From Candidatus Nomurabacteria bacterium RIFCSPLOWO2_01_FULL_39_18 (GTDB lineage: Bacteria > Patescibacteriota > Minisyncoccia > Phycocordibacterales > UBA9973), in NCBI GenBank assembly GCA_001787005.1, contig MFUV01000005.1, positions 2,764-66,763 of the forward strand: 64,000 nucleotides of DNA. The letters are read 5' to 3'. Under the pieces are notes generated by a model that saw only the letters and a program-made list of their open reading frames with translations, had not been told where the DNA came from and made no database searches. A program made the translations under genes and the position numbers. Below are positions 10,846 through 27,815 of the stretch, in pieces (position 1 is the stretch's first letter; each line of letters begins with the position of its first letter).

Positions 10846-10882
10846 TTGAAAGTTATAAAGTTCATAAAGTTATAAAGTAAAA

Positions 10883-11851: not shown

Positions 11852-12004
11852 ACCATAATTAAATCAGATTGGTTAAAATACAAAAAAAGGATTCTTTTAA
11901 TCGTTTTTGCGGTTGTTTTTATTGTTGTACTTTTTTTTCTGAAAACAACCTCTGTATTCAAAAATGAAGAAAAACAAGAAAATCTAGCAGAACAACAAGA
12001 GGGG

Positions 12005-12799
12005 TTGGTTTATAATACTGAAACGCTCGGAGATATAATAAATAAAGACACCGATGGAGACGGAATACTGGACTGGGAAGAGAGTTTGTGGGGAACCAGC
12101 CCGATGGAGAGGGAAACTACTCCCGGAATATTAGATAGTGTGGCAATAGAAGAACTAAAGGCGCAAAAAGCAGAGGAAGCAGAATTGAACGGGGAATTAG
12201 AAAGTCTAGACACAGAAAATTTGACTCAAACAGACAGATTCTCAAGAGAACTTTTCTCTACAATCAGCGCACTCTCTCAAAATGGGTCTGTGGATCAGGT
12301 GGTTATTGACGAATTGAGCACTTCTCTGGCCGAACAAATAAAGAACTCCCCAGTTCAAAAGATATTTCTATTGTCTGATCTAAAAATCATACAAGATGAT
12401 AATTTCCAGAGTATAAAAAATTACGACGATACTCTAAATATTATTCACCAAAAACACCCCGCGGAACGAACTGTAATGGATGTATTGCAAGATTTCGCAG
12501 CTGATGAAGAAAATGTTGATACTGCTGTCCTGTCGGAACTTGACCCTATAAATGCACAGGTACGAGGGATAATAGGAGACATGGTTGAAATGAATGTCCC
12601 GCAATCCCTGGCAGTTTTGCATTTGGATATCGTGAATGGGCTCCAAAGACTATCCGAAAATATAGATAATATAAAATTTTTCGACACCGATGTCATTGTT
12701 GCGCTTGGCGCCATAAGTCAATATGAAGCAAACACCGATCTATTAGCAGAAGCAACCATAAACCTCACGGACGCCATTAATCAAAAATTGAGTAATTAA
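12005..12799 (+). CDS. Hypothetical membrane-anchored protein with a DTDGDGILDWEE calcium-binding-like motif; the N-terminus probably extends to a TTG at 11868 across a homopolymer frameshift
   Basis: ORF from the track. The reading frame stays open upstream to 11876 and there encodes a classic signal-anchor (KKRILLIVFAVVFIVVLFFL). It joins the TTG at 11868 only if the A7 run at 11882-11888 is really A8. Confidence 0.55.
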   Translation: MVYNTETLGDIINKDTDGDGILDWEESLWGTSPMERETTPGILDSVAIEELKAQKAEEAELNGELESLDTENLTQTDRFSRELFSTISALSQNGSVDQVVIDELSTSLAEQIKNSPVQKIFLLSDLKIIQDDNFQSIKNYDDTLNIIHQKHPAERTVMDVLQDFAADEENVDTAVLSELDPINAQVRGIIGDMVEMNVPQSLAVLHLDIVNGLQRLSENIDNIKFFDTDVIVALGAISQYEANTDLLAEATINLTDAINQKLSN

Positions 12800-12814
12800 A
12801 TAAAAAACGATATA

Positions 12815-12854
12815 ACCCGGTAGTAGATCTTTGGTAAAAGTCTCACTACCGGGT
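12815..12854. repeat. REP-like hairpin element, copy 2 (acccggtagtagatctttggtaaaagtctcactaccgggt)
   Basis: Same termini as copies 1 and 3. It directly abuts a TATAAT and the start of the 12869 gene. Confidence 0.5.
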
Positions 12855-12868
12855 ATAATATAAGGAAA

Positions 12869-15490
12869 ATGACAGAAAAAAATAGTAGAATGGTAAAATT
12901 TATTTCCTCGCTTTTAATTATCGCAACAATAGCACCGAGTATTTTACTGTCCAAACCGAAACAAGCGGAAGCCTTCGGCGCTACATGGTTAACGGATATA
13001 TTTACTGGCGCAAATGTAGTCCCCGCTACGGTAAGCGCAGGGCAAGAAACTACTCAAACCGCATTGAAGCTTAAAGATGTCGCCAAAGAAATTTTGAAGC
13101 AAATTGTCATGACCATTCAGAGAAGACTTCTGGCGGAGATGACTAAAGGCATGGTGAACTGGATAAATAGAGGCTTCCATGGATCACCGCTTTTCCTGGA
13201 AAATCCAAAATCTTTCTTCCAGGATATTGCGAAATATGAAGTTAAAACTTTAATAGACACCTTCGGCTACGATAGCCGGAGATTTCCTTTTGGCAGAGAC
13301 TTTGCTTTAAATACAATCAATAGTTATAAAAGGCAACTGGGAGATAATGCTGAATATACTTTAAGCAGGGTGATTAACGATCCTGCTTTATTAAATAATT
13401 ATAGAAACGACTTCGACTTCGGAGGCTGGAATGGATTTTTAATAAACACACAATACCAGCAAAATAATTATATCGGGTTTCAACTACTAGCGACAGAAGA
13501 ATTAGCTGGGAGATTACAAGGCACAGTTGAAAATAATGCGCAGAAAGTACAGACTACTCTTGATCAAGGGATGGGTTTCTTGTCTCCGCAAACTTGCGCG
13601 GATAATGGCGGGAATAATGAATACAATAAAATTGTCGCAAATCAGTTTAAGCGACCAAGCTTTAAACCTGTAACAAAATTCGACCCGACTCCCATGCTAT
13701 TAGAATGTGTGGATGGTGGTCCAAACCCACCACCATATTGTGAGGCTGCATTTCAAGGATATCAAGCCGAAGTGCAACTGTACCAGGAAAGACTAGCAAA
13801 AGAAAGAGCTGCCTGGGCAACAAAAAACACTTGTAAAAACTTAGTGGCAACTACTCCTGGTTCTGTAGTAGCGAATCAAATAACGAACGCCATGGGGTCA
13901 AATTTCAGGCAGACCGAACTTGGAGCGGCTTTGGGCAACAGCATGTCTGCTATTTTTGACGCTTTACTTAACCAGTTCTTGAGTAAGGGTTTGAATGCCT
14001 TGGCAACCACAAAAAATCCTCCAAAACCACCACCGGACGATTGGTCTTATGGCGGTCTGACCCTAGGCAGTCCGACAGATGAAACTAACGAGGAATGGGA
14101 TTCCGGACCGGATGAAGTTGTCATTTTGGATGATTTCGGGAAACAATTAGTTGGAGAAATAGTTCCAGGTAATTCTGCTAGCTCAATTTGTATTATGCAA
14201 ACTGGATTGGCGCTACCGGGTTTCACGCAAGCGGCTTGTATAGCAGCAGGCGGAATATGGGTACCTGCTAATTCGGTATACGTACCCGGCGATATAGCAA
14301 ATACGCAAAAAGAATTGGCATTGATGGATAATCTGGATCCAAATAATCCTTATGTCAACGCATCTGGCGCATTTCCTCCAGGATGTACATCAAATCTAGG
14401 ATTCAACGCAACGACTGGCCTGCCATGCAATAGCGGAATAACGCAAATAATAAGCGGCACTTGGCCCAAGATCAGAGAACTCGACATGTGTCTGCCAGGT
14501 CCAGACTTTGGTTGGAAAGACAGGTTGCTGGATGAAATGGTGAGAAACAGCAAAAAACTTCAGGAAAGAGCAAGTGACAGTGACGGGCAAAAAGCTGCGG
14601 AGGCCGACCTAGTTCTTAAGGAATTAAAATTTGCCGTAAATTCTTTCAGGGATTGGATAAATAATAAAATGATAACGGAACTCCCAAATTCTATAATTTA
14701 TATGGACGCGGTAGATGAAATTGAAGACTTATATCAGCAATCAGAGGAACTCACCGACAGAAAAAGGGGAAAGACCCAGGCTTTGATACGACTTCAGGTA
14801 ATAAAAACACAATTGCTTGAATTGAAAAATCTCCTAGCTTCGCAAAATCCACCCCTCATCCAACCAGCCGCGGGATCAGCCGAAGAAAAAACTTTAATTG
14901 CGCTAAAAAAACAATACAACGCCATTCGGACTTCAATCTCGAGCCCTGTTAGCGTGGATGAAATAAAAAATGAATTATTTTTCTCGGTAGATAAATTGGC
15001 CAGACTAAATTCATTGATTACACAATGCAAGACTGAAAAATCGGCTAAACCCGCCATCTCAGAACAAAATGTATTTTGTGAGGCACCGATTAAGGGTGGT
15101 TATTCCCATGGAACATTCATTGGTCCTGACACTACAACTCCTAAATTGCCAATGGTAAATGCAAAAAAGGTGTATACGTGGAGAAGCTGGCTGGGACTGA
15201 AGGGTAATCAGGTCAACATAGATCTGAAATGTGACATTATCTACAAAGCCACTTTGGTAGATTACAAAAAGGATTTGCCAGGTTTAAATAGTGGTCTCAC
15301 GGATCCATTACCAAGTACGGGTGGTACCACACAATTTGGTTCTTGCACTTATGAAGAAACAGGTATGACACAGGATGAATGTACCGCTAGCGGAGGATCA
15401 TGGAATATCTCAACCGATATTTGTACTCGCACGGACCAAAATGTAACAGAAGAAAACTGCACCGCAAATGGAGGAACGTGGGAACAATAA
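12869..15490 (+). CDS. Large secreted Cys-rich protein (signal peptide), hypothetical; T4SS-cluster associated
   Basis: 873 aa. N-terminal signal peptide MVKFISSLLIIATIAPSILLSKPKQAEA. Many paired cysteines. C-terminal CTASGGSW / CTANGGTW repeats. Confidence 0.6.
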   Translation: MTEKNSRMVKFISSLLIIATIAPSILLSKPKQAEAFGATWLTDIFTGANVVPATVSAGQETTQTALKLKDVAKEILKQIVMTIQRRLLAEMTKGMVNWINRGFHGSPLFLENPKSFFQDIAKYEVKTLIDTFGYDSRRFPFGRDFALNTINSYKRQLGDNAEYTLSRVINDPALLNNYRNDFDFGGWNGFLINTQYQQNNYIGFQLLATEELAGRLQGTVENNAQKVQTTLDQGMGFLSPQTCADNGGNNEYNKIVANQFKRPSFKPVTKFDPTPMLLECVDGGPNPPPYCEAAFQGYQAEVQLYQERLAKERAAWATKNTCKNLVATTPGSVVANQITNAMGSNFRQTELGAALGNSMSAIFDALLNQFLSKGLNALATTKNPPKPPPDDWSYGGLTLGSPTDETNEEWDSGPDEVVILDDFGKQLVGEIVPGNSASSICIMQTGLALPGFTQAACIAAGGIWVPANSVYVPGDIANTQKELALMDNLDPNNPYVNASGAFPPGCTSNLGFNATTGLPCNSGITQIISGTWPKIRELDMCLPGPDFGWKDRLLDEMVRNSKKLQERASDSDGQKAAEADLVLKELKFAVNSFRDWINNKMITELPNSIIYMDAVDEIEDLYQQSEELTDRKRGKTQALIRLQVIKTQLLELKNLLASQNPPLIQPAAGSAEEKTLIALKKQYNAIRTSISSPVSVDEIKNELFFSVDKLARLNSLITQCKTEKSAKPAISEQNVFCEAPIKGGYSHGTFIGPDTTTPKLPMVNAKKVYTWRSWLGLKGNQVNIDLKCDIIYKATLVDYKKDLPGLNSGLTDPLPSTGGTTQFGSCTYEETGMTQDECTASGGSWNISTDICTRTDQNVTEENCTANGGTWEQ

Positions 15491-15556
15491 GAAAGTTTTA
15501 AAGTGAAAAGTTATAAAGTTTGTAAAGTAAATGAACATAAAGTAGTGAAAAAAATT

Positions 15557-15949
15557 ATGACTAAAAAAGAAATAAAAAATGCTGTAAAATATTGGAAGGA
15601 AACATCTAAAAGAGATTATGGCACCATGCTTGGGCTTTTTAAGATTAAACGCTACCCAGAAAGCCTGTTCTTTGGGCATATTGTTTTGGAAAAAACTCTT
15701 AAAGGTCTAGTTGTTCAAGAAACAGGGGAACAAGCGCCTTATATACATGATTTGCTTCGATTGGCAAAATTAGCAGAAATCAATTTAAATAAAGAGGAGT
15801 TTAACTTATTAAAAATTGTTAGTACTTTCAACATTCGAGCTAGATACCCTGAGCAAAAGTTGAAACTATATAAAATATGCACAGAAAAATATACAAAAGA
15901 TAAATTGGATAAAATTATCACATTATATAAATTATTATGTCAAAATTAG
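15557..15949 (+). CDS. HEPN-like (nucleotidyltransferase substrate-binding-like) protein, partner of the downstream MNT
   Basis: The track ORF begins at 15503, but 15503-15556 matches a leader motif shared with the rsmA upstream region. An in-frame ATG at 15557 (MTKKEIKNAVKYWKE..) is the more likely start. The gene overlaps the next ORF by 13 nt. The canonical HEPN Rx4-6H motif is not obvious. Confidence 0.45.
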   Translation: MTKKEIKNAVKYWKETSKRDYGTMLGLFKIKRYPESLFFGHIVLEKTLKGLVVQETGEQAPYIHDLLRLAKLAEINLNKEEFNLLKIVSTFNIRARYPEQKLKLYKICTEKYTKDKLDKIITLYKLLCQN

Positions 15950-16251
15950 AAGCAAAGAAAATAATTAGAAACTATGTAAGAAAACTAAGATCTGAAAAAT
16001 ACCCTGTTTCGGCGGCTTATTTGTTCGGCTCCTATGCAAAAAATACCCAGCGCAAGTGGAGTGATATTGATGTGGCAATAATTTCTCCAAAATTTAAAAT
16101 TCGTTTTGGGAAAAGTTACATGAGACTTTGGGATTTTCGTGAAGAAGTGGACAGTCGCATTGAACCACATGGCTTCACAAAGACAGATTTTAAAAATTTG
16201 GCTGATCCTTTAGTTTATGAAATTAGAAAGACTGGGATAAGAGTGATTTAA
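15937..16251 (+). CDS. Minimal nucleotidyltransferase (MNT) domain protein
   Basis: LFGSYAKNTQRKWSDIDVAI carries the GS...DxD nucleotidyltransferase signature. 104 aa. Confidence 0.75.
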   Translation: MSKLEAKKIIRNYVRKLRSEKYPVSAAYLFGSYAKNTQRKWSDIDVAIISPKFKIRFGKSYMRLWDFREEVDSRIEPHGFTKTDFKNLADPLVYEIRKTGIRVI

Positions 16252-16260
16252 TGTAAATAA

Positions 16261-18645
16261 ATGAAAACGAAGGTTAAAAAAATAATCCCGTACTGCCTGA
16301 TACTCATCATCCTGATCGGACTTCTAAGCCCGATGATTGGCGTTAGAGATGCACGGGCACAGGAACCAGTAGCCCCGATAGGAAAATGCCTTTATGGTGA
16401 TGATGTTAACGGCTACAAATCAATAAATATAACAGAAAACGCTTGTAAAAAAACCCCTTACTTTGGGACTTGGGACCCCACACCCACACCAAATCCCACT
16501 GAAAAACCAAAAACAGATGACCAAACGCCATTCGACAAAGAATTACAAGAATATCAATGCGGATTCGCCGGGATTGGGGGTACTTTCTGGCCTGGATGTG
16601 TCTTATGGGTTGTTTACGGCCTCTTTTATGCTATCCCCACGTTTTTATTTGCAGTAAGCGCCTATTTTTTCAACGTTCTGGTATCCATAACACTAAGTGG
16701 TGGATTGGTGGGCGATTCTCCTTTTGTTTCTGCGGCCTGGGCAGTAGTTCGAGACCTTTCTAACATCTTCTTCATTCTTATTCTGCTCTACATCGCAATA
16801 AAAACAATCTTGGGGATGGGGGGTTCTGAAGTTAAAAAAATGATAGCCCACGTTGTGCTGACAGCGCTACTTATAAATTTCAGCATGTTCTTTACCAAGA
16901 TTATTATTGATACTACGAACATCTTGGCTCTGGTTTTCTATAATAAAGTAAATGTTGAAACGAGGGTAGATGGACAACCGAGACCCTACAAAAGCGCGAC
17001 GGGGGAAAAAGATATTTCTGGTGGTTTATATAAGGCTTTTGATCCTACAAAATTAGTATCAGCGGATTTCTTTAAGCAGGCTAGAGAAATAGATCCGTCA
17101 ACAGAAGGTAAAGTACCACCAAGTATATTGATCTCAATGCTTATCATAACCGGAGTAATTATGGGTTACGCGGCTTATTGTTTTTTCCAAGTTGGAGTAT
17201 TTTTCTTAAGCAGACTTATTGAACTTTGGGTTTTAATTATTTTTTCACCTTATGCTTTTATGTCTTCGTCTGTGCCAGTCTTAAGCAAGTCTGAGGGCAT
17301 AGGCTGGGACGACTGGTGGCATCGGCTCCTTCAAGTGTCTTTCTTGGCGCCGATTTTCATGTTCTTTTTATACATAATATTCAAACTAATAGAAGCTAAT
17401 CCATTCACGGGCGTTCTAAACTCGAGCGACAGCATGTTTGAAACAATATTATTCATTGTACTCCCTGCGCTGGTGATTTTGATAATCCTGAAAAAGGCAA
17501 CTGAAAAAGCCAAAAAGTTGTCGGGAGAATTGGGTACTGTGGTAATGGGAGCAGTAAAAGCATTGGCTGTGATAGGTGTCGGCGCAGCAGCAGGCGGAAC
17601 AGCTCTTTTGGCAAGAACTGCTTTTGCTAGAACTGCAGCAATAGCTTCGAGGACAGAGGGTGCGAAACATTATGGGAAAGCGAGAATCGAGCACAATAAG
17701 GCTTTAGAAAAGTGGGAAGGAGAGGAAAAAAAGGCACGTGGATCTGGTGGTGTCAAACCTACCTGGGAAAAATCTAAAGCAGATTATGAATCTAAAAGCG
17801 GGAAGAAAATTTACACAAGTAATCCACTTAAGAATCCATTCATTACTTTGGGTGGAAGAATTAATGCCGCTCAATCAAGGTCGGGTGAAATAGAACGCGC
17901 AAGACAAGGAGTAGACGAGATAAAGAAGAAAGCTGGATTAGAAGGAGTGGGAGATGCATTCATCACTGGTGCACAACAGGAGAATATAGAAAAAACATTT
18001 GTTAAAGACAAGGGATCCGATATTGAAAGGGATATTAGAAGAGGTCATGACGCTAAAGGTGAAGAAATAAAAGATGAAAATGGTGCTAGGATATTAAGTC
18101 AAGACGAGTACGAGTCAGCAAATCGTAGCAGGATAGCCGCTGGTATAGAGACAGCAGCAGCACCGGGAGATGTTGATGCAAGTGGAAAATTAACAAAGCA
18201 AGGAGACAACAAAGTCGAAAATGAATTGAGAAAAGAGTTTAATGAAAAATTAAAAGGTTTTGTGCAAGAAGTAGGGAAAATAAGATTTGCAAAACTTCAG
18301 GGAGAAGCTAAGGAAAAAATAGGAATGGCAACAAGGGTAGCATCTAGAACAACAAGCGGAACTTATGACATAAGAAACTTGTCAGGACTAAAAACAGATA
18401 AAAGAGAAGGAATCGGAGCCAAAGCAACGGTTGGTCTTATCGCCGCCGTAGCAATGGGCATGAGAATGGGATTAAAACAAGGAGCTGGAGTTGAAGTTGG
18501 TTCAGGTCAAGGAAATGCCCTTAAAGACATCGGTCAAATAGTTACGGAAGCATTAAAAAATGTAAAGTTAGATGTAAAATTAGAAGATGGGGGGGGGAAT
18601 AAAACAGCACATGGTCCAGCCCCAGGCGCGAATGCTCCAAAGTAG
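16261..18645 (+). CDS. Polytopic membrane protein, VirB6/TrbL-like, with a long hydrophilic Lys/Glu/Gly-rich C-terminal tail
   Basis: Signal peptide, about 100-aa periplasmic region, then at least six TM helices, then a roughly 370-aa low-complexity C-terminal extension. Located in the cluster with VirB4. Confidence 0.5.
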   Translation: MKTKVKKIIPYCLILIILIGLLSPMIGVRDARAQEPVAPIGKCLYGDDVNGYKSINITENACKKTPYFGTWDPTPTPNPTEKPKTDDQTPFDKELQEYQCGFAGIGGTFWPGCVLWVVYGLFYAIPTFLFAVSAYFFNVLVSITLSGGLVGDSPFVSAAWAVVRDLSNIFFILILLYIAIKTILGMGGSEVKKMIAHVVLTALLINFSMFFTKIIIDTTNILALVFYNKVNVETRVDGQPRPYKSATGEKDISGGLYKAFDPTKLVSADFFKQAREIDPSTEGKVPPSILISMLIITGVIMGYAAYCFFQVGVFFLSRLIELWVLIIFSPYAFMSSSVPVLSKSEGIGWDDWWHRLLQVSFLAPIFMFFLYIIFKLIEANPFTGVLNSSDSMFETILFIVLPALVILIILKKATEKAKKLSGELGTVVMGAVKALAVIGVGAAAGGTALLARTAFARTAAIASRTEGAKHYGKARIEHNKALEKWEGEEKKARGSGGVKPTWEKSKADYESKSGKKIYTSNPLKNPFITLGGRINAAQSRSGEIERARQGVDEIKKKAGLEGVGDAFITGAQQENIEKTFVKDKGSDIERDIRRGHDAKGEEIKDENGARILSQDEYESANRSRIAAGIETAAAPGDVDASGKLTKQGDNKVENELRKEFNEKLKGFVQEVGKIRFAKLQGEAKEKIGMATRVASRTTSGTYDIRNLSGLKTDKREGIGAKATVGLIAAVAMGMRMGLKQGAGVEVGSGQGNALKDIGQIVTEALKNVKLDVKLEDGGGNKTAHGPAPGANAPK

Positions 18646-18710
18646 TAGTGAAGTGGGAAGTTGAATAAGAGAGAAAGATAGGACATCATTAGAAAATGAA
18701 TTAAAAAAAA

Positions 18711-19697
18711 ATGGATAAAGAAGAATTACAACAGAAAATAGCATTGTACTACTCAAAGCTTCCACCAAAAGCGCAAGCGGTTTTTTCCAGTATGAAATGG
18801 CTTGAGACTATAAAGAGCATAAGTGAAAAGTACGGCTTAAATGACAAACAGAAAGAGATACTCGGCACGGAAACAACTTTGGTGCTTTTGGGCATAATCG
18901 ATATAATCAAGTATGAAGAAATATTGATAGAAGAACTAGCATTATCGAAAGAGTCTGTAGATAAGATGCTTTCAGAAATAAACGATCTAATTATAAATAA
19001 TATACGACCCGAACTCATTGATGCATTCAACGCAAATAAAAATTCTCTAGAAAAAGAAAACCCAGAAATTGAACCAGTCTTAGACACACGTTTTGGGAAA
19101 TTATCACCGGATTTGGAAAAGATAATTGACGAATCCAATTATCAAGACATTCTCTATGGTATTGGCAAAGAGAAAAATTTCAGCGTTACGAAGATGGGAG
19201 CGCTTGAAAGAGCAACCACTGATCTAATAATGGGTACTATTCATCCAGATGAATTCGAGAATGTGCTAGAGAATAATTTAGAATTACCGCTAGAAAAAGT
19301 CAGAGAACTAGTAAATATTATCAACGAAAGAATTTTCAAAAAAATACGGGAAGAATTGATAAAGAATGTTGAGAGAAAAAAGATATTCGCGAACAAAAAA
19401 GCTGAAGAAAAACAGGATACGCAAGTATTGGGCGCCCACGGCATCGAGATTGTCGAGAATCCCCCCCTCCTTATCAAGGAGGGGGCGGGGGGTGGTAATT
19501 CAGAAGAGAACCACCCCGCCTCTGGCACCCCTCCTCAACAAGGAGGGGAAGAAACGCATCCCATATTAGCGCAAAAGTTATCCGGCCCTTATCAGGCTCC
19601 AGTAGTCAAGACGGACCACTCCTTGCAAAATCTTCAGCCTTCTTCTGAACAACAAAATAAGCCTGTAATTGATCCTTACCGCGAAATTCCGGAGTAG
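18711..19697 (+). CDS. Hypothetical protein (T4SS cluster) carrying a GC-rich palindromic insert near its C-terminus
   Basis: 328-aa ORF. The region 19461-19560 is GC-rich and palindromic (ccccctcc-ttatcaa-ggaggggg ...) and is translated in frame as PPLLIKEGAGGGNSEENHPASGTPPQQGGEE. Confidence 0.55.
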   Translation: MDKEELQQKIALYYSKLPPKAQAVFSSMKWLETIKSISEKYGLNDKQKEILGTETTLVLLGIIDIIKYEEILIEELALSKESVDKMLSEINDLIINNIRPELIDAFNANKNSLEKENPEIEPVLDTRFGKLSPDLEKIIDESNYQDILYGIGKEKNFSVTKMGALERATTDLIMGTIHPDEFENVLENNLELPLEKVRELVNIINERIFKKIREELIKNVERKKIFANKKAEEKQDTQVLGAHGIEIVENPPLLIKEGAGGGNSEENHPASGTPPQQGGEETHPILAQKLSGPYQAPVVKTDHSLQNLQPSSEQQNKPVIDPYREIPE

Positions 19698-19826
19698 AAT
19701 CATGCATCCCGTTAGAGATTAATTAGTTAAAAGTAATAAAAAAGTAAAAATATTATGATAAGTTTAAATAAATTATTAATGGTTATTAAAAGAACGGAAG
19801 TCTAGAGACTTCCTATCTCTAACGGG

Positions 19827-20258
19827 ATGCAATTCAAAGTTCCACAATTTTTAGATATAGAAGACAAAATTTTTGGCCCCTTTACTTTTAAGGAATTTAT
19901 TTACTTAGCAGGTGGAGCCGGTCTTTGTTTTGTGCTTTATAAACTGCTGGGTTTCTTCCTAGGCATTATCCCAATGCTTGCGATAGCTGGGCTCTCCTTA
20001 GCGCTTACTTTCTATCGACCAAACAATAAACCTTTCAGCAACATGATCGAAGCAGGATTCAACTATTTTACACAAGATAAACTTTATATTTGGAAGAGAC
20101 GTAAAAATAAAATCGACAAAAACAAGCCAGAAACGAATGGAGTGGAAGAAAGAGAAAGAGAAATGTTGGAAAATGCGGTGAGGCTGGGTAGAAATAAATT
20201 ACGGGATTTGGCTTGGAGTTTGGATGTGCTTGATTTAAGTAAACATCAAGGAAATTAA
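19827..20258 (+). CDS. Small membrane protein, VirB3/PrgI-like
   Basis: 143 aa with a hydrophobic hairpin (LAGGAGLCFVLYKLLGFFLGIIPMLAIAGLSLALTFY). Sits just upstream of the VirB4 ORFs. Its ATG directly abuts the right arm of an inverted repeat (19814-19829). Confidence 0.45.
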   Translation: MQFKVPQFLDIEDKIFGPFTFKEFIYLAGGAGLCFVLYKLLGFFLGIIPMLAIAGLSLALTFYRPNNKPFSNMIEAGFNYFTQDKLYIWKRRKNKIDKNKPETNGVEEREREMLENAVRLGRNKLRDLAWSLDVLDLSKHQGN

Positions 20259-20392
20259 CAATTAAAAATATGGTCCCGTTAGAAGTCGCGGTCGCAGTTT
20301 AAAAAATATAAATATGTTAATCAAAAAAATGAAAATTAATAGTATAATAAAGCTAAATTGCGATGAATTGACCGCGACCTGCTTCTAACGGG

Positions 20393-21040
20393 ATGGCATT
20401 AAAAGCAAAAGCAACTCAAGAGTTCGTACCGATAAAAGAAGTCCGCGATGGAGTGATCGTGCTCAAAGACGGCGGACTGCGAGCTATCATACTTGCTAAT
20501 TCAGTTAATTTATCCCTGAAGTCTGATGACGAACAGAAAGCAACAATAATTCAATTCCAAAGTTTTTTGAATACCCTCGACTTCGCTATTCAGATATCAG
20601 TGCAGTCCAGAAGGTTGGATATCAGGCCCTATCTTTTGCTTCTAGAAGACAGGATGAAAGTTCAAACTGAATCTTTGCTTAAACTGCAGACAAGAGAATA
20701 TATTGAATTCATTAGAAACTTCACCGAATCAGTAAGTATAATGACCAAAAGTTTCTTCGTGATAATACCCTACACTCACACAGTTTTAAAATCAGACTCC
20801 GGAATTTTCGGCGGAATATCAAAAATATTCAACAGAAAAAACAAAGAAGAGGTGAAAATAGCGAAACAAGAAGACTTTGAGGAAAAGAGGTCCCAGCTAG
20901 AAGAGCGGGTGGGGGTGATTAAACAAGGGCTTAATCGCTGTGGCATAAAGTCTGCCGAGCTCGGCACGGAAGAAATCGTGGAAGTATTTTATAAAGTTTT
21001 TAACCCCGGAGAAGTAGAGGGGAAAATTAAGCTGGAATAA
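20393..21040 (+). CDS. VirB4/TrbE N-terminal domain (CagE_TrbE_VirB-like) encoded as a separate ORF
   Basis: VPIKEVRDGVIVLKDGGLRAIILANSVNLSLKSDDEQKATIIQFQSFLNTL.. resembles the N-terminal domain of VirB4. It ends 7 nt before the ATPase ORF, in a different frame. Confidence 0.55.
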   Translation: MALKAKATQEFVPIKEVRDGVIVLKDGGLRAIILANSVNLSLKSDDEQKATIIQFQSFLNTLDFAIQISVQSRRLDIRPYLLLLEDRMKVQTESLLKLQTREYIEFIRNFTESVSIMTKSFFVIIPYTHTVLKSDSGIFGGISKIFNRKNKEEVKIAKQEDFEEKRSQLEERVGVIKQGLNRCGIKSAELGTEEIVEVFYKVFNPGEVEGKIKLE

Positions 21041-21047
21041 AAATATT

Positions 21048-22901
21048 ATGGGAATTTTTGATAAATTATTAAATAGGAAAAAAGATAGCTCAGCTTTGAG
21101 TAATACAAATGCTTCACTCTTGGCTGTGCTTCCAGAAGAAATATATGAAGCGGCCAATCTGGAGCTTCAGGATATCATCGCGCCATCAGCGTTAAAGATT
21201 GAATCAAAGTCAATAAACTTGGGCGATAAAATCGCTCGTACTTTTTTCATAATATCTTACCCGAGGTTTTTGACCGACAATTGGTTTTCTCCAATAATCA
21301 ACCTAGATAAAGTTTTTGATATTTCAATTTTCATTCATCCGATAGACACATCATTGATGTTACGACAATTCCAGAAAAAGGTCGCTGAAGTGCAAAGCCA
21401 GATAAATGTGCGCGAGTCAAAAGGCATGGTGCGCGACCCAATGCTCGACACCGCCTATCAAGACCTAGAAGGGCTCCGTGATAATCTGATACAAGCGCAG
21501 GAAAAGATGTTTGATGTGGGTATCTACATTACAATTTACGCCGACAATGATCTGGAGCTTTTCAAAATTGAAAATGAGATAAAATCAATCCTCGAATCAA
21601 GATTGATCTATATCAAACCAGCGCTCTTCCAGCAAGAAGAAGGTTTCAAAAGCGTTATCCCGACAAATACTGATCTTTTAAATATTCATCAAAAATTAAA
21701 TTCGGAGCCACTCTCAAGTATTTTTCCTTTTATTTCTTTTGACCTGACTTCCGACAGAGGCATTCTCTACGGCATTAACAGGCACAACTCAAGTTTAGTC
21801 ATTTTTGATCGTTTTTCGCTGGAGAATTACAACTCAGTGACCTTCGCCAAATCCGGTTCAGGAAAATCTTATGCCACAAAGCTGGAAATTCTGAGATCCC
21901 TGATGTTTGACATTGAGGTTATGGTGATAGACCCAGAGCGAGAATACGAATTCCTAGCTGAAGCGGTTGGCGGAAGATATTTTAATATTTCTCTTTCTTC
22001 AGACCACCATATGAACCCTTTTGATCTACCCATGCCACGAGAAGATGAGACAGCCGAAGATGTTTTGCGCAGTAATATTATTAATTTAGTCGGACTTTTC
22101 CGATTAATGTTGGGCGGACTGACGCCAGAAGAAGATTCAATGGTTGATCGAGCTATTTCAGAAACTTACGCGATAAAAGATATCACCCCAGAAGCGGATT
22201 TCTCAAATATCGAGCCCCCGCTTCTTTCGGACTTCGAAATGGTTCTGGGCGGGATGGACGGCAGTGATTCGCTCGTGGCTCGCTTGGCAAAATACACCAA
22301 GGGTTCATGGGCAACATTTTTAAACAGACCTTCGAACGTGGACATTGATAAAAAATTTGTCGTATTTTCTATTCGTGATATGGAAGACGAACTGAAGCCT
22401 GTGGCAATGTATATCGTCATGCATTATATCTGGAACTCAATCCGTAAAAATTTAAAGAAGCGTCTGCTCGTGGTGGATGAAGCCTGGTGGATGATGAAGT
22501 CCGAAGATACCGCGTCATTTCTCTATTCCATCGCCAAACGGGGCAGAAAATATTATCTTGGGCTCGCAACCATTACTCAAGATGCGGCAGATTTCATGAA
22601 ATCTTCCTACGGCGTGCCAATCATTACCAACTCTTCTATCCAGCTTCTCTTGAAACAATCTCCCACTACGATGGATATTTTACAGCAAACATTCAACCTT
22701 ACTGATGAGGAAAAATATTTGCTTCTAGAGTCTGGGGTGGGAGAGGGAATATTTTTCGCGGGGCTGAAGCATGTCGCTATAAAAATTATTTCTTCTTATA
22801 CAGAAGATCAGATTATCACTTCTGATCCTTCACAAATATTATCAAATAGAAAAGCCAAAGAAGAGCATGAGGCCCTGGAGCTGGCGGGAGACAAATTATA
22901 A
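21048..22901 (+). CDS. VirB4-like type IV secretion ATPase (AAA-like domain)
   Basis: Walker A FAKSGSGKSY. Walker B/DE LLVVDEAWWMM. 617 aa. Combined with the preceding ORF it is about 830 aa, the size of a full VirB4. Confidence 0.85.
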   Translation: MGIFDKLLNRKKDSSALSNTNASLLAVLPEEIYEAANLELQDIIAPSALKIESKSINLGDKIARTFFIISYPRFLTDNWFSPIINLDKVFDISIFIHPIDTSLMLRQFQKKVAEVQSQINVRESKGMVRDPMLDTAYQDLEGLRDNLIQAQEKMFDVGIYITIYADNDLELFKIENEIKSILESRLIYIKPALFQQEEGFKSVIPTNTDLLNIHQKLNSEPLSSIFPFISFDLTSDRGILYGINRHNSSLVIFDRFSLENYNSVTFAKSGSGKSYATKLEILRSLMFDIEVMVIDPEREYEFLAEAVGGRYFNISLSSDHHMNPFDLPMPREDETAEDVLRSNIINLVGLFRLMLGGLTPEEDSMVDRAISETYAIKDITPEADFSNIEPPLLSDFEMVLGGMDGSDSLVARLAKYTKGSWATFLNRPSNVDIDKKFVVFSIRDMEDELKPVAMYIVMHYIWNSIRKNLKKRLLVVDEAWWMMKSEDTASFLYSIAKRGRKYYLGLATITQDAADFMKSSYGVPIITNSSIQLLLKQSPTTMDILQQTFNLTDEEKYLLLESGVGEGIFFAGLKHVAIKIISSYTEDQIITSDPSQILSNRKAKEEHEALELAGDKL

Positions 22902-22928
22902 AGCAAGGATAAATGGTATAATCGAATT

Positions 22929-23918
22929 ATGAAATTAAAATTTTTATTACTATCTTTGATCACTATGCTTGTAATATTTATGGTGATTTCTGCGTCGGGG
23001 GTAAATGCCGCCTCATCTAGTAGCATTTCGGTTGATATGATACCTTCTAGCCCGGCTCCAGGCGAGAATGTAAGCATTACTTTGAGCAGTTACGCCAATA
23101 ATCTAGATAGTGTTTTAATAACCTGGTCTCTTGATGGAAGAACCGTTTCATCTGGGATTGGCAAAAAATCATTTTCTCTGACGGCTCCAGGCGCTGGCTC
23201 TGAAGTTGTCGTTACAGCCATTATCTCCCTGCCAGAAGGTAGTGTGGAGAAAAGAATGATAATAAGATCAAGCCTAATGGTGCTACTCTGGCAGGCGAAT
23301 GATTCTTATGTCCCGCCTTTTTATAAAGGCAAGGCAATGCCCTCCGTAGGTAGTGAGATAAAAGTGGTAGCCATGCCAGAAATAAAAGTTGGTTCGGACG
23401 GGACGGTTAACCCCAAAAGCATGACCTATTCTTGGAAAGAAGATGACACCAACAACGTAGAGGGTTCGGGTTATGGCAAAAATTCTTTTGTTTTTATAAA
23501 TGATTATTTAGAGGATTCTAACAATATAGGAGTAACGGCATCGACCATAGACCAGACATATTCATCTGAAGCCAGCATAAATGTGGGAATAGTAGAACCG
23601 AAAATATTATTTTATAAATATGATAATAGCCTCGGGATATTATGGGAGAAAATACTCCCTGACTTCCACAGAATACAAGATACAGAGATAGTGGAAGCGA
23701 CGCCTTACTTTATTTCACCGAAAGATATCCGAAATCCAACATTGATATGGAGTTGGTTTATTAATGACACGCAAATAAATACTCCAATTTTTAGGAAAAA
23801 TGTAATGCCTCTCCGGGTAGAGAGTGGAACTTCCGGGATATCACGACTGCGACTTCGAATTGAGAATCAATACAAAATTTTCCAGACAACAGATGGGGAA
23901 ATAGATTTAGAATTTTGA
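22929..23918 (+). CDS. Secreted hypothetical protein (signal peptide)
   Basis: MKLKFLLLSLITMLVIFMVISASGVNA signal peptide, then a Ser/Thr/Val-rich region suggesting beta-rich structure. Confidence 0.55.
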   Translation: MKLKFLLLSLITMLVIFMVISASGVNAASSSSISVDMIPSSPAPGENVSITLSSYANNLDSVLITWSLDGRTVSSGIGKKSFSLTAPGAGSEVVVTAIISLPEGSVEKRMIIRSSLMVLLWQANDSYVPPFYKGKAMPSVGSEIKVVAMPEIKVGSDGTVNPKSMTYSWKEDDTNNVEGSGYGKNSFVFINDYLEDSNNIGVTASTIDQTYSSEASINVGIVEPKILFYKYDNSLGILWEKILPDFHRIQDTEIVEATPYFISPKDIRNPTLIWSWFINDTQINTPIFRKNVMPLRVESGTSGISRLRLRIENQYKIFQTTDGEIDLEF

Positions 23919-23996
23919 GTGAAATTTAATGAGTGAAATGAATATAAATTTCCTCATCCCGTACTAAATTTTAGATTAAATGATATTAAAATAAAA

Positions 23997-25049
23997 ATGA
24001 TTATAAAAGATGAAAATAAATTAAGATTGAGAACTACAAGTAAAATTTTAGTACTGGGATTTATTTTTATACTCATAGGATTTTTTAGTCCGAGTCTAGA
24101 TGTAAACGCTGTGGAACAATACGGAACTTGTAATTGGGTTGAAGCTGAACAGAAAAGGAAGGAAGAAAATTATCTACAAGCAAATTGTTTAGCAAAGGGC
24201 AATACCGCAACTTGGGTAGGTTACTACTATCCCTTGGCTCCATTGCCTGGCTTGGGGAACAGGGAAGATGGAGGAATTGACACCGCGCAAATAGACAGCA
24301 CCGGAAAAAGCATTGCCTTGGGTGCATACCTAAACACAATGATAAAAATAATCATCGGAATTGCCGCAATTTTGTCTGTGGTTATGATTGTGATAGGGGG
24401 GATAGAATACATGACCTCTGAATTAATATCTAGTAAGGAAGCGGGTAAAGAAACAATAAAGAACGCGCTCTTCGGACTTCTGGTAGCTCTTGGCGCTTAT
24501 GCGCTTTTGAATACAATAAATCCGGACTTGCTGAAATCCGACCTAGACGTCCCAGGTGTGACTGTCACAGTAGATCTTGAAGCTGATGTCCCACAGACTT
24601 ATGACCCAGCAACCAGAAAATATGCCAATGGAGCTCTCTTTAACGCGCCATGGAATGACACAGTTGGGGGAATTACCCCAGCATGTACAACAGAAACTGG
24701 TACAGGATGTTTGCCAAGATCAGTTACTGCAAAACAACCAGAATGTTCTACTATTGGTCAACAAAATTGCACTTCAACAAGAGGTCTAAATACTAGTAAT
24801 TTGAGAACAATACAATATGGTTGTGGATGTAACGTATTAATCACTGGTGGAACAGAATGGTGGCTACACGGCGGGCGAAGTGGAAGTACGACCCATCAGT
24901 CTGGAAGTACGACCGTCGACCTTAGAACAACACCTGAATTGACTAGATATCTAATGGGTGGGACAACAGCTCCGGTCGCAGGACGAAGATACCCAACACC
25001 AGTTGGATCGGCATTGTTTGAAGGAAATCATTGGCACATTGGTCCATAA
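23997..25049 (+). CDS. VirB2/TrbC-pilin-like domain (two adjacent hydrophobic helices) fused to a Cys-rich extracellular C-terminal domain
   Basis: Helices KIIIGIAAILSVVMIVIGGIEYM and ALFGLLVALGAYALLNTINP, separated by a short polar loop, as in T4SS pilins. The C-terminal 150 aa have 8 Cys. Confidence 0.45.
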   Translation: MIIKDENKLRLRTTSKILVLGFIFILIGFFSPSLDVNAVEQYGTCNWVEAEQKRKEENYLQANCLAKGNTATWVGYYYPLAPLPGLGNREDGGIDTAQIDSTGKSIALGAYLNTMIKIIIGIAAILSVVMIVIGGIEYMTSELISSKEAGKETIKNALFGLLVALGAYALLNTINPDLLKSDLDVPGVTVTVDLEADVPQTYDPATRKYANGALFNAPWNDTVGGITPACTTETGTGCLPRSVTAKQPECSTIGQQNCTSTRGLNTSNLRTIQYGCGCNVLITGGTEWWLHGGRSGSTTHQSGSTTVDLRTTPELTRYLMGGTTAPVAGRRYPTPVGSALFEGNHWHIGP

Positions 25050-25130
25050 AATAATTTTACTTGTCCCGTACTAAATTTTTGATTACGGGGTATAATGATA
25101 AAAATTAATAAATAAAATTTTAGTATCGGG

Positions 25131-26495
25131 ATGTCAAAAAGAAACTTCACACTTTTAATAATAATTTTAATTCTAGGAACAGTCGGGTTTTTTGTATTTC
25201 TATATTCTCGTGGAGAGACACCTAGAGGAGAGGGAGGCGAGGGCACTAATTTCATCGCAAGGTTTAATCCATTCAGCAACAAAAAACCAGCGCCGGAAGA
25301 CACAGGGCCCACAGAGGATACCTCTTCACCTATAGAAGATCCTGAAGAAAAAATGCTGGAAGTAGAACTAAAAAAAGTTTCAAGTATGGAAATCGCTGGG
25401 TTTGGAGTATTTACGAAAGAAAGATTGAAAGAGATGAACCCCTCTCCAGCCCTCCCCTTGTCAGGGGAGGAAGAGAATCCTGCCCCCCCTGCTAAGGGGG
25501 GTTCGGGGAGTCTGAAACCCACACCGCCACCGACTGAATTTGCAACAGCAGTAAGATATGTGGCGAGAGCTACTGGGAACATTTATCAGACTTTCGCAGA
25601 CAAAATAATTGAGCGAAAGTTTTCTGGAACATTAATACCTAAAGTATACGAAGCGCATTTCGGCAATCATGGGGGATCTGTGGTGATGCGATACTTAAAG
25701 GGGGATGAAAAGACCATAGAAACTTTTTTCAGTGTCCTCCCGAAAGAATATTTGGGCGGTGATGCAACGGAAAACAATGAGATAAAAGGATCATTCTTAC
25801 CTAATAACATAAAAGATATAAGCCTTTCATCTGATACTTCTAAAATATTCTACCTTTTTGAGAGTGAAAGTAATTTAGGAGAAAGCATCATAGGCACAAC
25901 CTTGAGCTTGTTGGACAATAAAAAGGTTCAGATATTTGATTCTCCTTTTACGGAATGGCTGTCATCCTGGCCAAATAATAAAATTATCACCCTTTCCACT
26001 AAGCCTTCTGCGAACACTCCAGGATACATGTACAGCATTGATGGAGTTGGTAAAAACTTAACTAAAATCTTGGGTGATATAAATGGATTAACTACGCTCA
26101 CAAGTCCGGACGGAAAGTTGGTTCTTTACAGTGATAATAATCTAACTTCATATATTTACCATACGGATACTAAAAGTTCGGATTTATTGGGGATAAAAAC
26201 TCTGCCAGAAAAATGTGTCTGGGGGGGCGGGAGTGATATTTTTTACTGCGCTGTACCGAAATTAATTGGCGCTAGCCAATATCCAGATACTTGGTACCAG
26301 GGAGAAGAGTCATTTTCTGACCAAATTTGGAAAATAGATGTTGAAACAGGAAATGCCACCATGATCGAAGACCCGATCATGGCTCTGGGGGGAGAGGATG
26401 TTGATGGCATTAAGCTTGCTTTAGACGAAGGAGAGAGTTATCTATTTTTTGTAAACAAAAAAGATTCTTTTTTGTGGGAACTAAAGCTGAAATAA
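25131..26495 (+). CDS. Membrane-anchored protein with TolB-like beta-propeller repeats; hypothetical
   Basis: N-terminal TM helix LLIIILILGTVGFFVFLY. A GC-rich in-frame insert at 25452-25510. Repeats such as SPDGKLVLYSDNN. Confidence 0.55.
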   Translation: MSKRNFTLLIIILILGTVGFFVFLYSRGETPRGEGGEGTNFIARFNPFSNKKPAPEDTGPTEDTSSPIEDPEEKMLEVELKKVSSMEIAGFGVFTKERLKEMNPSPALPLSGEEENPAPPAKGGSGSLKPTPPPTEFATAVRYVARATGNIYQTFADKIIERKFSGTLIPKVYEAHFGNHGGSVVMRYLKGDEKTIETFFSVLPKEYLGGDATENNEIKGSFLPNNIKDISLSSDTSKIFYLFESESNLGESIIGTTLSLLDNKKVQIFDSPFTEWLSSWPNNKIITLSTKPSANTPGYMYSIDGVGKNLTKILGDINGLTTLTSPDGKLVLYSDNNLTSYIYHTDTKSSDLLGIKTLPEKCVWGGGSDIFYCAVPKLIGASQYPDTWYQGEESFSDQIWKIDVETGNATMIEDPIMALGGEDVDGIKLALDEGESYLFFVNKKDSFLWELKLK

Positions 26496-26578: not shown

Positions 26579-27073
26579 TTAGATAGCGCCAATGTATTTG
26601 ATCACTACTCGGCGAGACGGTCCGAAACCAACTGATTCAGTTTTTAGATCCGTGGCATCGGACAAAAATTCATGTACCACCCGTCGTTCGAAAGCTGACA
26701 TCGGATCCACTTCTATGTTTGATTTGAAATAGCGCGCTCGCTCCGACATCATATGTGCCACGGCACGAACATTATCAACACGTTTCTTTTGGAAACCATT
26801 AATGTCAATTAGAATTTCTGGCCACATGTCGGACTTGTGGGAATCCCACAAGTCCGACATGTGGTCTCTCTTGGCTTCAATCATTCTGCGAGCAAGATGG
26901 TTTAAGGCATTGAGCGCTTCACCATCGCGAGAGATGAAAAGATGCGGTTCATTTACCTCAACTGAAAACCATGTATTAGTACCATTGTCTTCAGTAATGG
27001 TAATTTTGTTGAGCATCGTTCCAGTTTTCTCAATCAATTCTTTTATTAAATTTTGTATTGTTTCCTTGTCCAT
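26579..27073 (-). CDS. jag: Jag/KhpB RNA-binding protein (KH + R3H domains)
   Basis: R3H motif RRVVHEFLSD. Position immediately downstream of yidC in the conserved rnpA-yidC-jag arrangement. Confidence 0.85.
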   Translation of the reverse strand: MDKETIQNLIKELIEKTGTMLNKITITEDNGTNTWFSVEVNEPHLFISRDGEALNALNHLARRMIEAKRDHMSDLWDSHKSDMWPEILIDINGFQKKRVDNVRAVAHMMSERARYFKSNIEVDPMSAFERRVVHEFLSDATDLKTESVGFGPSRRVVIKYIGAI

Positions 27074-27077
27074 AAGA

Positions 27078-27815
27078 TTATTTTACTATCATTGTCGTTT
27101 CCTTTTTCTTTCTACTCACATAAATCTGCTGACCTACTGTAAATATATTATTCGTAATCCAGTATAAAGCGATAGCTCCGGAAATAGTGTAAGAAATAAA
27201 AACCACAACAAATGGAAAAATATATTTCATCTGCATGTTCATGCTTTTACTAAAACTCTCCCCGAAAGAAGGGGTGGAAGAAGTAGTGGGAGGAGGAGAG
27301 GGTGGTTTGGGCATGAAGTGGGCCTGTAAGTATTGAGATACACCGGCTAAAATTGCCAAAACAAAACTCTTTTGACTTATATCAAGAACTCCCAAGAAAA
27401 GCATGTTGATCTTTTCTGGGACATGAACGAAGGAATAAAGCAACCCTCCTTGGAAATCTATCCCTTTCAAAAAAACATAGTACAGCGCGAAAATGATTGG
27501 AATTTGAATCAAAACCAAAAGACACCCGGAAAATGGATTAGTTTTGTGTTGCTTGTAAAGTTCGAAGGTCCTCCGTGCTTGTTCTTCTTTAGAGACCCCG
27601 CTACTTTTTATCTTATTTAATTCTGGGGCAAGCACATTCATGGCGGCCTGGCTTTCGATAGATTTCTGCGAAAGAGGGAAAAGGATAATTTTGACAATAA
27701 TAGTCAGAATAATGACAGCGATACCCACATCTCCTCCGGGGACAATAGAGACTAAAAAAGCCAGAGCATTCAATAATGGCTTATATAAAAGAAAATTCCA
27801 TAAATTTGAGAGCAT
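27078..27815 (-). CDS. yidC: Membrane protein insertase YidC (short, Oxa1-like form)
   Basis: MLSNLWNFLLYKPLLNALAFL...IVKIILFPLSQKSIESQAAM..., 5 TM segments. A GC-rich loop insert at 27235-27310 is translated as PPSPPPTTSSTPSFGE. Confidence 0.9.
   Translation of the reverse strand: MLSNLWNFLLYKPLLNALAFLVSIVPGGDVGIAVIILTIIVKIILFPLSQKSIESQAAMNVLAPELNKIKSSGVSKEEQARRTFELYKQHKTNPFSGCLLVLIQIPIIFALYYVFLKGIDFQGGLLYSFVHVPEKINMLFLGVLDISQKSFVLAILAGVSQYLQAHFMPKPPSPPPTTSSTPSFGESFSKSMNMQMKYIFPFVVVFISYTISGAIALYWITNNIFTVGQQIYVSRKKKETTMIVK

Follow-up and report, generated by a model that had tools for sequence, protein, structure and literature searches.

Which kind of type IV secretion system (T4SS) is encoded by the block of genes at positions 12005-26495 of the window, a 64,000-nucleotide stretch of DNA from Candidatus Nomurabacteria bacterium RIFCSPLOWO2_01_FULL_39_18, and does it serve conjugation, DNA uptake or contact with a host cell? 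Our analysis indicated that the block is very probably a chromosomal, vertically inherited T4SS of the Patescibacteria clade, a monoderm type related to the mating-pair-formation class FATA (MPF-FATA), and most likely a host-interaction conduit. The first-pass annotation of this DNA had read the block as a minimal T4SS-like apparatus, not used for conjugation, in an ultra-small episymbiotic bacterium, a proposal that agrees with our profile matches and with published work (PMC12102498, PMC10633639), and all the open reading frames (ORFs) that it had named were present on the forward strand (12869-15490, 16261-18645, 19827-20258, 20393-21040, 21048-22901, 22929-23918, 23997-25049 and 25131-26495). 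Neither outcome that it had named as a refutation was observed, since VirB4 groups with secretion and conjugation ATPases and profile matches were obtained for PrgI and for the pilin family.

The cluster is an intact copy of a Patescibacteria system that was already described between 2023 and 2025 and that lies close to the origin of replication in most of these ultra-small bacteria. Wang et al. (2023, Cell, PMC10633639) reported in Southlakia epibionticum a Gram-positive-like T4SS with pilins that lacks a relaxase and a coupling protein and is essential for growing on the host, and its T4SS genes are essential for epibiotic growth (PMC10633639; PMC12857230). Quinonero-Coronel et al. (2025, Microb Genom, PMC12102498) found VirB4 in 2417 of 3035 Patescibacteria genomes, mostly as one clade nested in MPF-FATA, with adjacent TrsD, PrgI/VirB3, VirB6 and VirB2-like pilins and with rare relaxases, and located the Paceibacteria cluster near dnaA, dnaN, ksgA and rnpA. 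A review from 2025 includes these systems as a new branch of the T4SSs (PMC12857230). The window holds no new kind of system; what it provides is a clean, complete example from Paceibacteria of a machine that is among the few known to be indispensable for epibiotic life in such ultra-small organisms.

Two of the cluster proteins were 100% identical to A3A95_00265 and A3A95_00235 of the organism named above, and the window is chromosomal DNA from Patescibacteria (candidate phyla radiation, CPR), class Paceibacteria. Best protein hits with organism names came from Nomurabacteria, Paceibacterota, Parcubacteria, Saccharibacteria and Wolfebacteria, and some metagenome-assembled genomes (MAGs) were labelled 'bacterium' only. 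Related loci were collected with the VirB4 ATPase as query; the best 80 of 589 hits among species-representative genomes were 74-91% identical, with alignments beginning at or near residue 1, and all organism-named hits among them were Patescibacteria-group MAGs. The synteny set comprised 82 loci from distinct species-level genomes, many of them shortened by contig ends. The genes assigned to the secretion machine are as follows (lengths in amino acids, aa).

16261-18645, forward strand: extended VirB6-like polytopic membrane protein, 794 aa (hydropathy, AlphaFold2 (AF2) model, Foldseek)
19827-20258, forward strand: PrgI/VirB3-like small membrane protein, 143 aa, with a hydrophobic hairpin at residues 24-63 (Pfam PF12666)
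20393-21040, forward strand: TrsD/TraC-like protein, 215 aa, a separately encoded VirB4 N-terminal domain (NCBIfam, PF26593)
21048-22901, forward strand: VirB4-family ATPase, 617 aa (NCBIfam, Pfam, PDB profile)
23997-25049, forward strand: VirB2-like pilin-hairpin protein with a C-terminal module, 350 aa (T4SS_pilin, AF2 model)

VirB4 and its separately encoded N-terminal domain

The product of 21048-22901 is, by its profile matches, firmly identified as a VirB4 ATPase. It scored 362.9 bits against the VirB4-like NCBIfam model conju_CD1110 (cutoff 325) and also matched Pfam P-loop_TraG (8e-25), the solved VirB4 structure 4AG5 (E 8.4e-39) and TrwK (3e-8), thereby grouping with secretion and conjugation ATPases. 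The Walker A (AKSGSGKS, residues 267-274, nt 21846-21869) and Walker B (LLVVDE, residues 473-478, nt 22464-22481) motifs were both intact. The sole PHROGs match in the cluster, a 'terminase' family on this ATPase, represents generic P-loop similarity. The preceding ORF, 20393-21040, matched the N-terminal parts of VirB4 models in addition to the TrsD/TraD model NF041427 (2.7e-6), the latter at 27.4 bits, far under the family cutoff of 200. Among its 7877 homologues, the best 120 were all 211-217 aa long and 82-98% identical and carried the TraC-like domain PF26593 in precomputed annotation. On these grounds it is firmly identified as a TrsD/TraC-like protein equivalent to the VirB4 N-terminal domain, and both assignments bear out those of the first-pass annotation. 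A separate TrsD homologue adjoining virB4, a mark of the Patescibacteria-clade T4SS, is thus found in the window.

Whether the split between these two ORFs was genuine or a frameshift had been left undecided in the first-pass annotation. The 7-nt gap (21041-21047) and the difference in frame that it had described were confirmed, and the nearby G4A4 run lies at 21019-21026, not at 21018-21027. Two adjacent ORFs in different frames near such a run, along with several ORFs that have no recognisable family, could be read as a decaying remnant in which the split VirB4 is a frameshifted pseudogene and the cluster is non-functional. However, the split falls at a domain boundary and is universal, as a stop codon and a gap of 1-673 nt divide TrsD from VirB4 in 75 of 75 loci, with all three frame relations represented (30/24/21). 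We regard the split as a genuine, conserved two-gene arrangement because the best 120 homologues are of uniform length and because the stop and gap recur in every frame relation across these loci, and the frameshift or pseudogene reading of the split is ruled out by the same two observations. The same TrsD and TrsE arrangement is present in pGO1 and has been reported for 1664 Patescibacteria virB4 genes (PMC12102498). Protein identity of 74-91% despite saturated synonymous sites, together with the intact Walker motifs, also speaks against decay, which we consider barely credible as an explanation of the cluster.

PrgI/VirB3-like and VirB6-like membrane proteins

The small membrane protein at 19827-20258 scored 32.6 bits against Pfam PF12666 PrgI, above the gathering score of 27, and orthologues were found in 77 loci with a median identity of 60%. 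This profile match firmly identifies it as PrgI/VirB3-like, in line with the first-pass annotation.

The polytopic protein at 16261-18645 is predicted to have a signal peptide, a small ectodomain with Cys, roughly seven hydrophobic helices within residues 109-450 and a hydrophilic C-terminal tail of about 345 aa that is rich in Lys, Glu and Gly. Its earlier description as a VirB6/TrbL-like protein with a hydrophilic tail holds for the overall layout; the VirB6 identity is supported by fold matches that rank first but are statistically weak. An AF2 model of residues 1-470 (predicted local distance difference test (pLDDT) 79.6, predicted template modelling score (pTM) 0.71) was compared by Foldseek with 350,542 PDB chains, where R388 TrwI/VirB6 chains took ranks 1-4, 7, 13 and 21 (E 0.05-1.2, probability up to 0.99), the top four matches having E values of 0.05-0.15 and probabilities of 0.92-0.99; DotA took rank 8. 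No Pfam or NCBIfam match was obtained for the protein, nor did its 120 listed homologues carry a precomputed Pfam domain, and its family profile retrieved nothing relevant from PDB sequences. The VirB6-like domain also had no match by tblastn among 72,556 plasmids. A VirB6-like identity is therefore weakly supported by the model, and the architecture fits the 'extended VirB6' subfamily (PMC12857230).

A pilin hairpin with exchangeable C-terminal heads

The protein at 23997-25049 was modelled by AF2 (pLDDT 83, C-terminal domain >90) as a signal helix, a small beta domain containing Cys, a two-helix hairpin and a confident C-terminal domain. It also has the conserved motif YxLLAPLP. The last two parts map as follows.

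nt 24315-24518 (residues 107-174): two-helix hydrophobic hairpin, from the AF2 model
nt 24579-25046 (residues ~195-350): C-terminal domain, from the AF2 model

The window protein matched T4SS_pilin at 23.1 bits (E 7.8e-5), and this family was matched by all 55 aligned pilin family members (best 2.5e-10), 27 of which also matched TrbC/VirB2. A VirB2-like pilin hairpin is thus supported at the family level by these profiles, and the VirB2-like double helix described in the first-pass annotation stands. What it called a 'Cys-rich ectodomain' is one of many interchangeable C-terminal modules. The term 'Cys-rich' applies moderately to two secreted proteins of the cluster, with 16 Cys in 873 aa and 8 in 350 aa, and fails for the other secreted proteins, which have 0-2.

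Positional orthologues in 72 loci, 63 of which matched T4SS_pilin, differed in their C-terminal parts, and in at least half of them this module is a peptidoglycan-cleaving enzyme. The following families were identified.

NlpC/P60 C-terminal part: 13 of 72 orthologues
VanY C-terminal part: 10 of 72
YkuD C-terminal part: 5 of 72
Amidase_5 C-terminal part: 5 of 72
Peptidase_M15_4 C-terminal part: 3 of 72
SLT C-terminal part: 2 of 72
SLT_2 C-terminal part: 2 of 72

At least five unrelated heads (NlpC/P60, VanY, YkuD, SLT and the H/D/E/HWH domain of the window) came from genomes in which VirB4 was 88-91% identical to that of the window. The hairpin is fused to enzymes, and the C-terminal module is swapped between close relatives; we did not find this fusion and swapping described in the Patescibacteria T4SS papers examined.

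The C-terminal domain of the window protein has invariant residues C250, C258, C276, W289, H291, H300, D308, E342 and H345-W-H347 in the family alignment, and their spacing recalls VanY/M15 zinc peptidases. The motifs thus resemble those of LAS/M15 (VanY-like) peptidases, in which SxHxxGxAxD and ExxH bind zinc, but the assignment of the domain to that family was set aside and is kept as no more than a hypothesis, as profile and fold searches (Pfam, PDB sequences, Foldseek against PDB and BFVD) gave no support. Alignment with the enzyme tails of orthologues by hhalign also gave no support. By its position, in analogy with the orthologues, the head of the window protein is probably also a cell-wall-active domain. 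A more far-reaching interpretation is that the Paceibacteria 'pilin' is a modular tool, with a conserved VirB2-like hairpin handled by the VirB4 machine and a rapidly exchanged head that is matched to the host peptidoglycan and displayed by the T4SS so as to break through the wall of the host. We offer this tentatively, as a possibility that is rather doubtful at present and that we did not encounter in the papers searched; if true, the C-terminal domain of the window would be a new muralytic fold. The fusion of a pilin to interchangeable cell-wall enzymes gives a concrete means of testing whether the envelope of the host is a target of the machine.

Gene order, conservation and conjugation genes

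The block is bounded by housekeeping genes, which are listed here with the nearby replication genes.

8791-11851: uvrD to ksgA, flank 5' of the block
10883-11851: ksgA, just before the first cluster gene
26579-27815, reverse strand: jag and yidC, convergent, flank 3' of the block
27078-27815, reverse strand: yidC
30355-31704: dnaA
31845-32942: dnaN

Comparison of gene order with other CPR genomes, as the first-pass annotation had advised, revealed a fixed order over the 82 loci: ksgA, the gene for a 264-aa protein, the 873-aa gene, the VirB6-like gene, the 328-aa gene, PrgI, TrsD, VirB4, the 329-aa gene, the pilin-like gene, the 454-aa gene, and then jag and yidC on the reverse strand. The flanks were detected in 26 (ksgA), 64 (yidC) and 59 (jag) of these loci, and an 11-gene conserved core is delimited by ksgA and jag. 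Median identities to the window proteins were 85% for VirB4, 71% for TrsD and 60% for PrgI, compared with 65% for YidC, 58% for Jag and 53% for KsgA among the housekeeping neighbours and 32-44% for the remaining cluster proteins. VirB4 and TrsD are at least as constrained as yidC, jag and ksgA because their median identities exceed those of all three. The ratio of non-synonymous to synonymous substitution (dN/dS) was approximately 0.03-0.04 where computable, values that are indicative only since dS was saturated (>2) in most pairs. The base composition of the block was the same as that of its flanks, and a promoter and terminator scan of the cluster gave results not above chance and no operon information.

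A Pfam scan of the 40 larger ORFs of the window identified no relaxase, no VirD4/TraG-type coupling protein and no VirB9, VirB10 or VirB11, in agreement with the first-pass annotation. Relaxase, type IV coupling protein (T4CP) and integrase genes were likewise absent from the window and from the 20-kb neighbourhoods of two related loci (L001/L002), and no repeat borders of a mobile element were found at the cluster in these three sequences. The sole related ATPase in the window was a PilB-type T2SSE protein (40970-42691, reverse strand). As a separate observation, this PilB/GspE-type ATPase (Pfam T2SSE 1e-116) lies 14 kb from the T4SS block, adjoins polA and presumably serves type IV pili.

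The cluster could be the transfer module of an integrated conjugative element whose relaxase and coupling protein are encoded elsewhere. The VirB4 does pass the cutoff of the conjugative CD1110 family, systems for conjugation in Gram-positive bacteria typically have such partners as TrsD, PrgI and a VirB6-like protein, and VirD4 homologues occur elsewhere in many Patescibacteria genomes (PMC12102498). However, the same housekeeping slot (ksgA to jag-yidC, near dnaA) is occupied in 82 species-level genomes, the composition is that of the flanks, integrase, relaxase and repeat borders are missing from the window and L001/L002, and only 109 relaxases were counted in 3035 Patescibacteria genomes (PMC12102498). 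The relaxase, T4CP and mobile-element borders that mark conjugative elements and plasmids were thus not seen in the window, where the chromosomal site near dnaA, dnaN, ksgA and rnpA with no relaxase nearby is instead that of the Patescibacteria-clade T4SS. Because no relaxase or coupling protein is encoded nearby and the location is fixed among housekeeping genes, the block is not considered a conjugation system, and an origin as a conjugative element is highly unlikely.

A relaxase-free T4SS may alternatively act in DNA uptake, as a competence-type system like Helicobacter ComB or archaeal Ced that imports host or environmental DNA as a nucleotide source, an idea raised in PMC11665869. The absence of relaxase and T4CP from the window would suit this role, the ATPase has a weak match to the NCBIfam CedB model (31.8 bits, E 5.7e-8, far under the cutoff of 700), and in the class ABY1 the cluster sits with comF, recG and radA (PMC12102498). 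The best model match of the ATPase was nevertheless to conjugative VirB4 families and not to CedB, and the block has no DNA-binding or ComEC-like gene. In S. epibionticum, moreover, deletion of comEC ended competence and left viability unaffected, while the T4SS was still essential (PMC12857230). DNA uptake is accordingly the less favoured role and appears unlikely, although less so than conjugation.

Conserved accessory proteins

Five further conserved genes of the core encode accessory proteins.

12005-12799, forward strand: conserved accessory protein, 264 aa as listed, first after ksgA (synteny)
12869-15490, forward strand: large accessory protein, secreted or anchored, 873 aa, with a hydrophobic segment at the N-terminus and 16 Cys
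18711-19697, forward strand: acidic cytoplasmic accessory protein, 328 aa, no transmembrane helix
22929-23918, forward strand: accessory protein, secreted or anchored, 329 aa, with a hydrophobic segment at the N-terminus
25131-26495, forward strand: membrane-anchored accessory protein, 454 aa, last gene before the convergent jag/yidC

N-terminal hydrophobic segments were present in the products of 12869-15490, 22929-23918 and 25131-26495, which confirms the signal-peptide proteins of the first-pass annotation, as well as in those of 16261-18645 and 23997-25049. None of the five proteins matched a Pfam, NCBIfam or PHROG family or a PDB sequence, even with family profiles, and Pfam searches with the orthologue sets of the 873-, 329- and 454-aa proteins found no family.

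Alignment of the 873-aa protein, which has orthologues in 42 loci, identified a conserved N-terminal region (W98, G102, GGW185-187 and TPG329-331). The 328-aa protein has an internal duplication and a conserved C-terminal DPYRE motif, and its slot is represented in 56 loci, relatives holding one or two shorter genes there. The 329-aa protein (77 loci, median 36% identity) gave weak Ig/PKD hints only in profile searches and is, by position only, a candidate for a VirB8/PrgL-like role. The 454-aa protein (72 loci, median 44% identity) combines an N-terminal transmembrane helix, a Pro/Glu-rich linker and a conserved C-terminal domain that is probably beta-rich; one member of its family matched PD40 and another PG_binding_1.

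The 264-aa protein, with orthologues at a fixed position in 33 loci (median 32% identity), has a TSP3-like motif rich in Asp in its N-terminal part. At ~11888-11940 a transmembrane helix (RILLIVFAVVFIVVLFFL) that matches the orthologue N-terminus is encoded in frame, and the gene probably begins upstream of 12005. No ATG, GTG or TTG precedes this helix in the gap at 11852-12004, where only ATA/ATT codons occur at 11855, 11858 and 11891, so that the start may be non-canonical or the sequence may contain an error.

Comparison with known systems and proposed mechanism

The closest counterpart is the Patescibacteria-clade T4SS itself (SEML1_0006-0019 in S. epibionticum), which shares with the window VirB4 with adjacent TrsD, PrgI/VirB3, VirB6 (putative in the window) and a VirB2-like pilin (PF18895), the lack of a nearby relaxase or T4CP, and a chromosomal site by dnaA/dnaN/ksgA/rnpA-yidC (in Paceibacteria). 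Saccharibacteria differ in having an array of approximately six genes for small pilins, with a peptidase and a lysozyme encoded separately downstream of virB4, whereas the window has one pilin-hairpin gene with a large C-terminal module and five lineage-specific accessory genes. The Trs system of the staphylococcal plasmids pGO1/pSK41 (the MPF-FATA subclass with TrsC, TrsD and TrsE) resembles the window in its small TrsD beside the ATPase TrsE and in a monoderm envelope architecture without VirB7/9/10, but it is plasmid-borne and conjugative, has a relaxase and T4CP, and lacks a VirB2-like pilin and a recognisable VirB6. In pCF10 Prg/Pcf and CTn2 (CD1110), whose model cutoff the window VirB4 passes, a PrgI-like VirB3 adjoins VirB4, and downstream of VirB4 there is a cell-wall hydrolase anchored in the membrane (PrgK, CD419), a further likeness. 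These systems differ from the window in that their VirB4 is full-length and fused; they also have adhesins, a PrgL/VirB8-like protein, a relaxase and a T4CP, and their hydrolase is not on a pilin hairpin. R388 Trw (7O3V/8RTD) provides the best structural match for the membrane domain of 16261-18645 (TrwI/VirB6) and a match for the ATPase (TrwK/VirB4), yet it is of the diderm type and has VirB5, VirB8, VirB11 and a core complex in the outer membrane, the structural matches have low TM-scores (TMt 0.37-0.49), and the window protein has the hydrophilic 'extended VirB6' tail. Ced and Helicobacter ComB are, like the window, chromosomal and relaxase-free, with a VirB4-type ATPase, a VirB6-like protein (putative in the window) and VirB2-like pilins, and they differ in lineage, accessory genes and the CedB score given above.

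From the gene identities and the models of related machines we infer how the apparatus would be assembled and used. A VirB4 hexamer would sit at the cytoplasmic face, tethered to the membrane via the PrgI/VirB3-like protein as in R388 and Gram-positive models, with the TrsD-like protein supplying the VirB4 N-terminal domain in trans and the extended VirB6-like protein forming the membrane platform, on which VirB4 would also dock. The VirB2-like hairpin protein may be pulled from the membrane by VirB4 and built into a short conduit or pilus, and its C-terminal head may open peptidoglycan, either of its own cell or of the host. The five accessory envelope and cytoplasmic proteins would complete the apparatus. 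The finished machine could then function as a host-interaction conduit for epibiotic growth, bringing in material from the host or sending out proteins, as in S. epibionticum. A 2026 preprint describes tubular structures, possibly T4SS pili, at a parasite-host interface.

Several observations weigh against this interpretation. Five conserved cluster genes have no recognisable family, no cluster ORF matched a VirB8/PrgL-like component in Pfam, NCBIfam or PDB-profile searches, and a coupling protein could be encoded outside the window. The VirB6 assignment has no sequence-profile support and fold matches of E ≥0.05. The pilin protein of the window falls under the Pfam T4SS_pilin cutoff (23.1 versus 26.6 bits), its C-terminal domain was not recognised as a known hydrolase by Pfam, PDB sequence or Foldseek searches (PDB, BFVD), and a muralytic role for this domain is suggested by position, through analogy only. 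PMC11665869 calls the function 'completely unknown', and no pilus or substrate is known for the Paceibacteria T4SS. Any assignment to attachment, DNA uptake or a conduit is consequently speculative; the host-interaction conduit is favoured over DNA uptake, and conjugation and decay are unlikely.

Inserted HEPN/nucleotidyltransferase pair

Treatment of the whole block as T4SS-like in the first-pass annotation overlooked two features, the palindromic element before position 20393 that is treated in the following section and a gene pair between the 873-aa and VirB6-like genes.

15503-15949, forward strand: HEPN protein (Pfam 2.4e-13)
15937-16251, forward strand: nucleotidyltransferase/MNT (Pfam NTP_transf_2 1.4e-13)

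Because this HEPN/MNT pair occurs at the same place in only one of the 82 related loci (L043), it is interpreted as an insertion, a putative toxin-antitoxin-like module that lies outside the T4SS proper.

A palindromic element at start codons and other observations

The gap of 134 nt before the TrsD-like gene contains the following feature.

20274-20393: palindromic element resembling a miniature inverted-repeat transposable element (MITE)

The element has 12-nt terminal inverted repeats (TCCCGTTAGAAG / CTTCTAACGGGA) and a predicted RNA fold of -42.1 kcal/mol (z = -6.4). It ends on the A of the start codon of the TrsD-like gene, the displaced start copy, ATGG, is found at 20270-20273, and without the element the gap would be 11 nt, as seen in L001. 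Further copies of the element, 60-135 nt long with 12-nt ends YCCCGTTAGAAG...CTTCTAACGGGR, were found at L001 10640-10756, L052 9885-10000 and L018 9242-9359, in L083-L162 and in more loci, and its ends were also seen at further intergenic positions of related loci and in at least 120 stretches of metagenome DNA.

Among 133 distinct copies, 88 were followed directly by ATG (65) or GTG (23), 79 had an ORF of 50 codons or more that began where the element ends, and 92 were flanked by an exact 4-bp direct repeat, most commonly TGAA. The terminal base pair was T-A in 68 and C-G in 61 copies, and in the 79 ORF-ended copies ATG accompanied T-type ends (57) and GTG accompanied C-type ends (21). Diverse housekeeping and T4SS genes lay downstream, for example DnaA, L3, L22, S15, LepA, PNPase, TrsD and VirB4. 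This pattern fits a small mobile element that would insert inside start codons and rebuild them from its own last base and the duplicated target. An autonomous transposon with these ends was not found in 200 loci, where the only arms that pair over long range have housekeeping genes between them. The one Rfam match, to a miRNA, was a chance hit far under threshold, and a literature search on the terminal sequence or on MITEs in CPR returned nothing relevant.

Elsewhere in the window, an IS200-like Y1 transposase ORF was found at 45618-46298 (Pfam Y1_Tnp 3.4e-7), and three consecutive large hydrophilic ORFs of 717, 586 and 535 aa, with no Pfam match and no hydrophobic segments, lie upstream of uvrD (3176-8721). 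A 578-aa protein with 39 cysteines and many CxxC pairs is encoded between yidC and dnaA (27870-29606), with no Pfam match and no counterpart in the 82 related loci. Finally, the jag/R3H gene on the reverse strand contains within its coding sequence a perfect stem of 20 bp closed by a 3-nt loop (26822-26864), which in comparison with the L001 orthologue is an in-frame insertion of eight codons (DSHKSDMW) that forms an inverted copy of the adjacent sequence.

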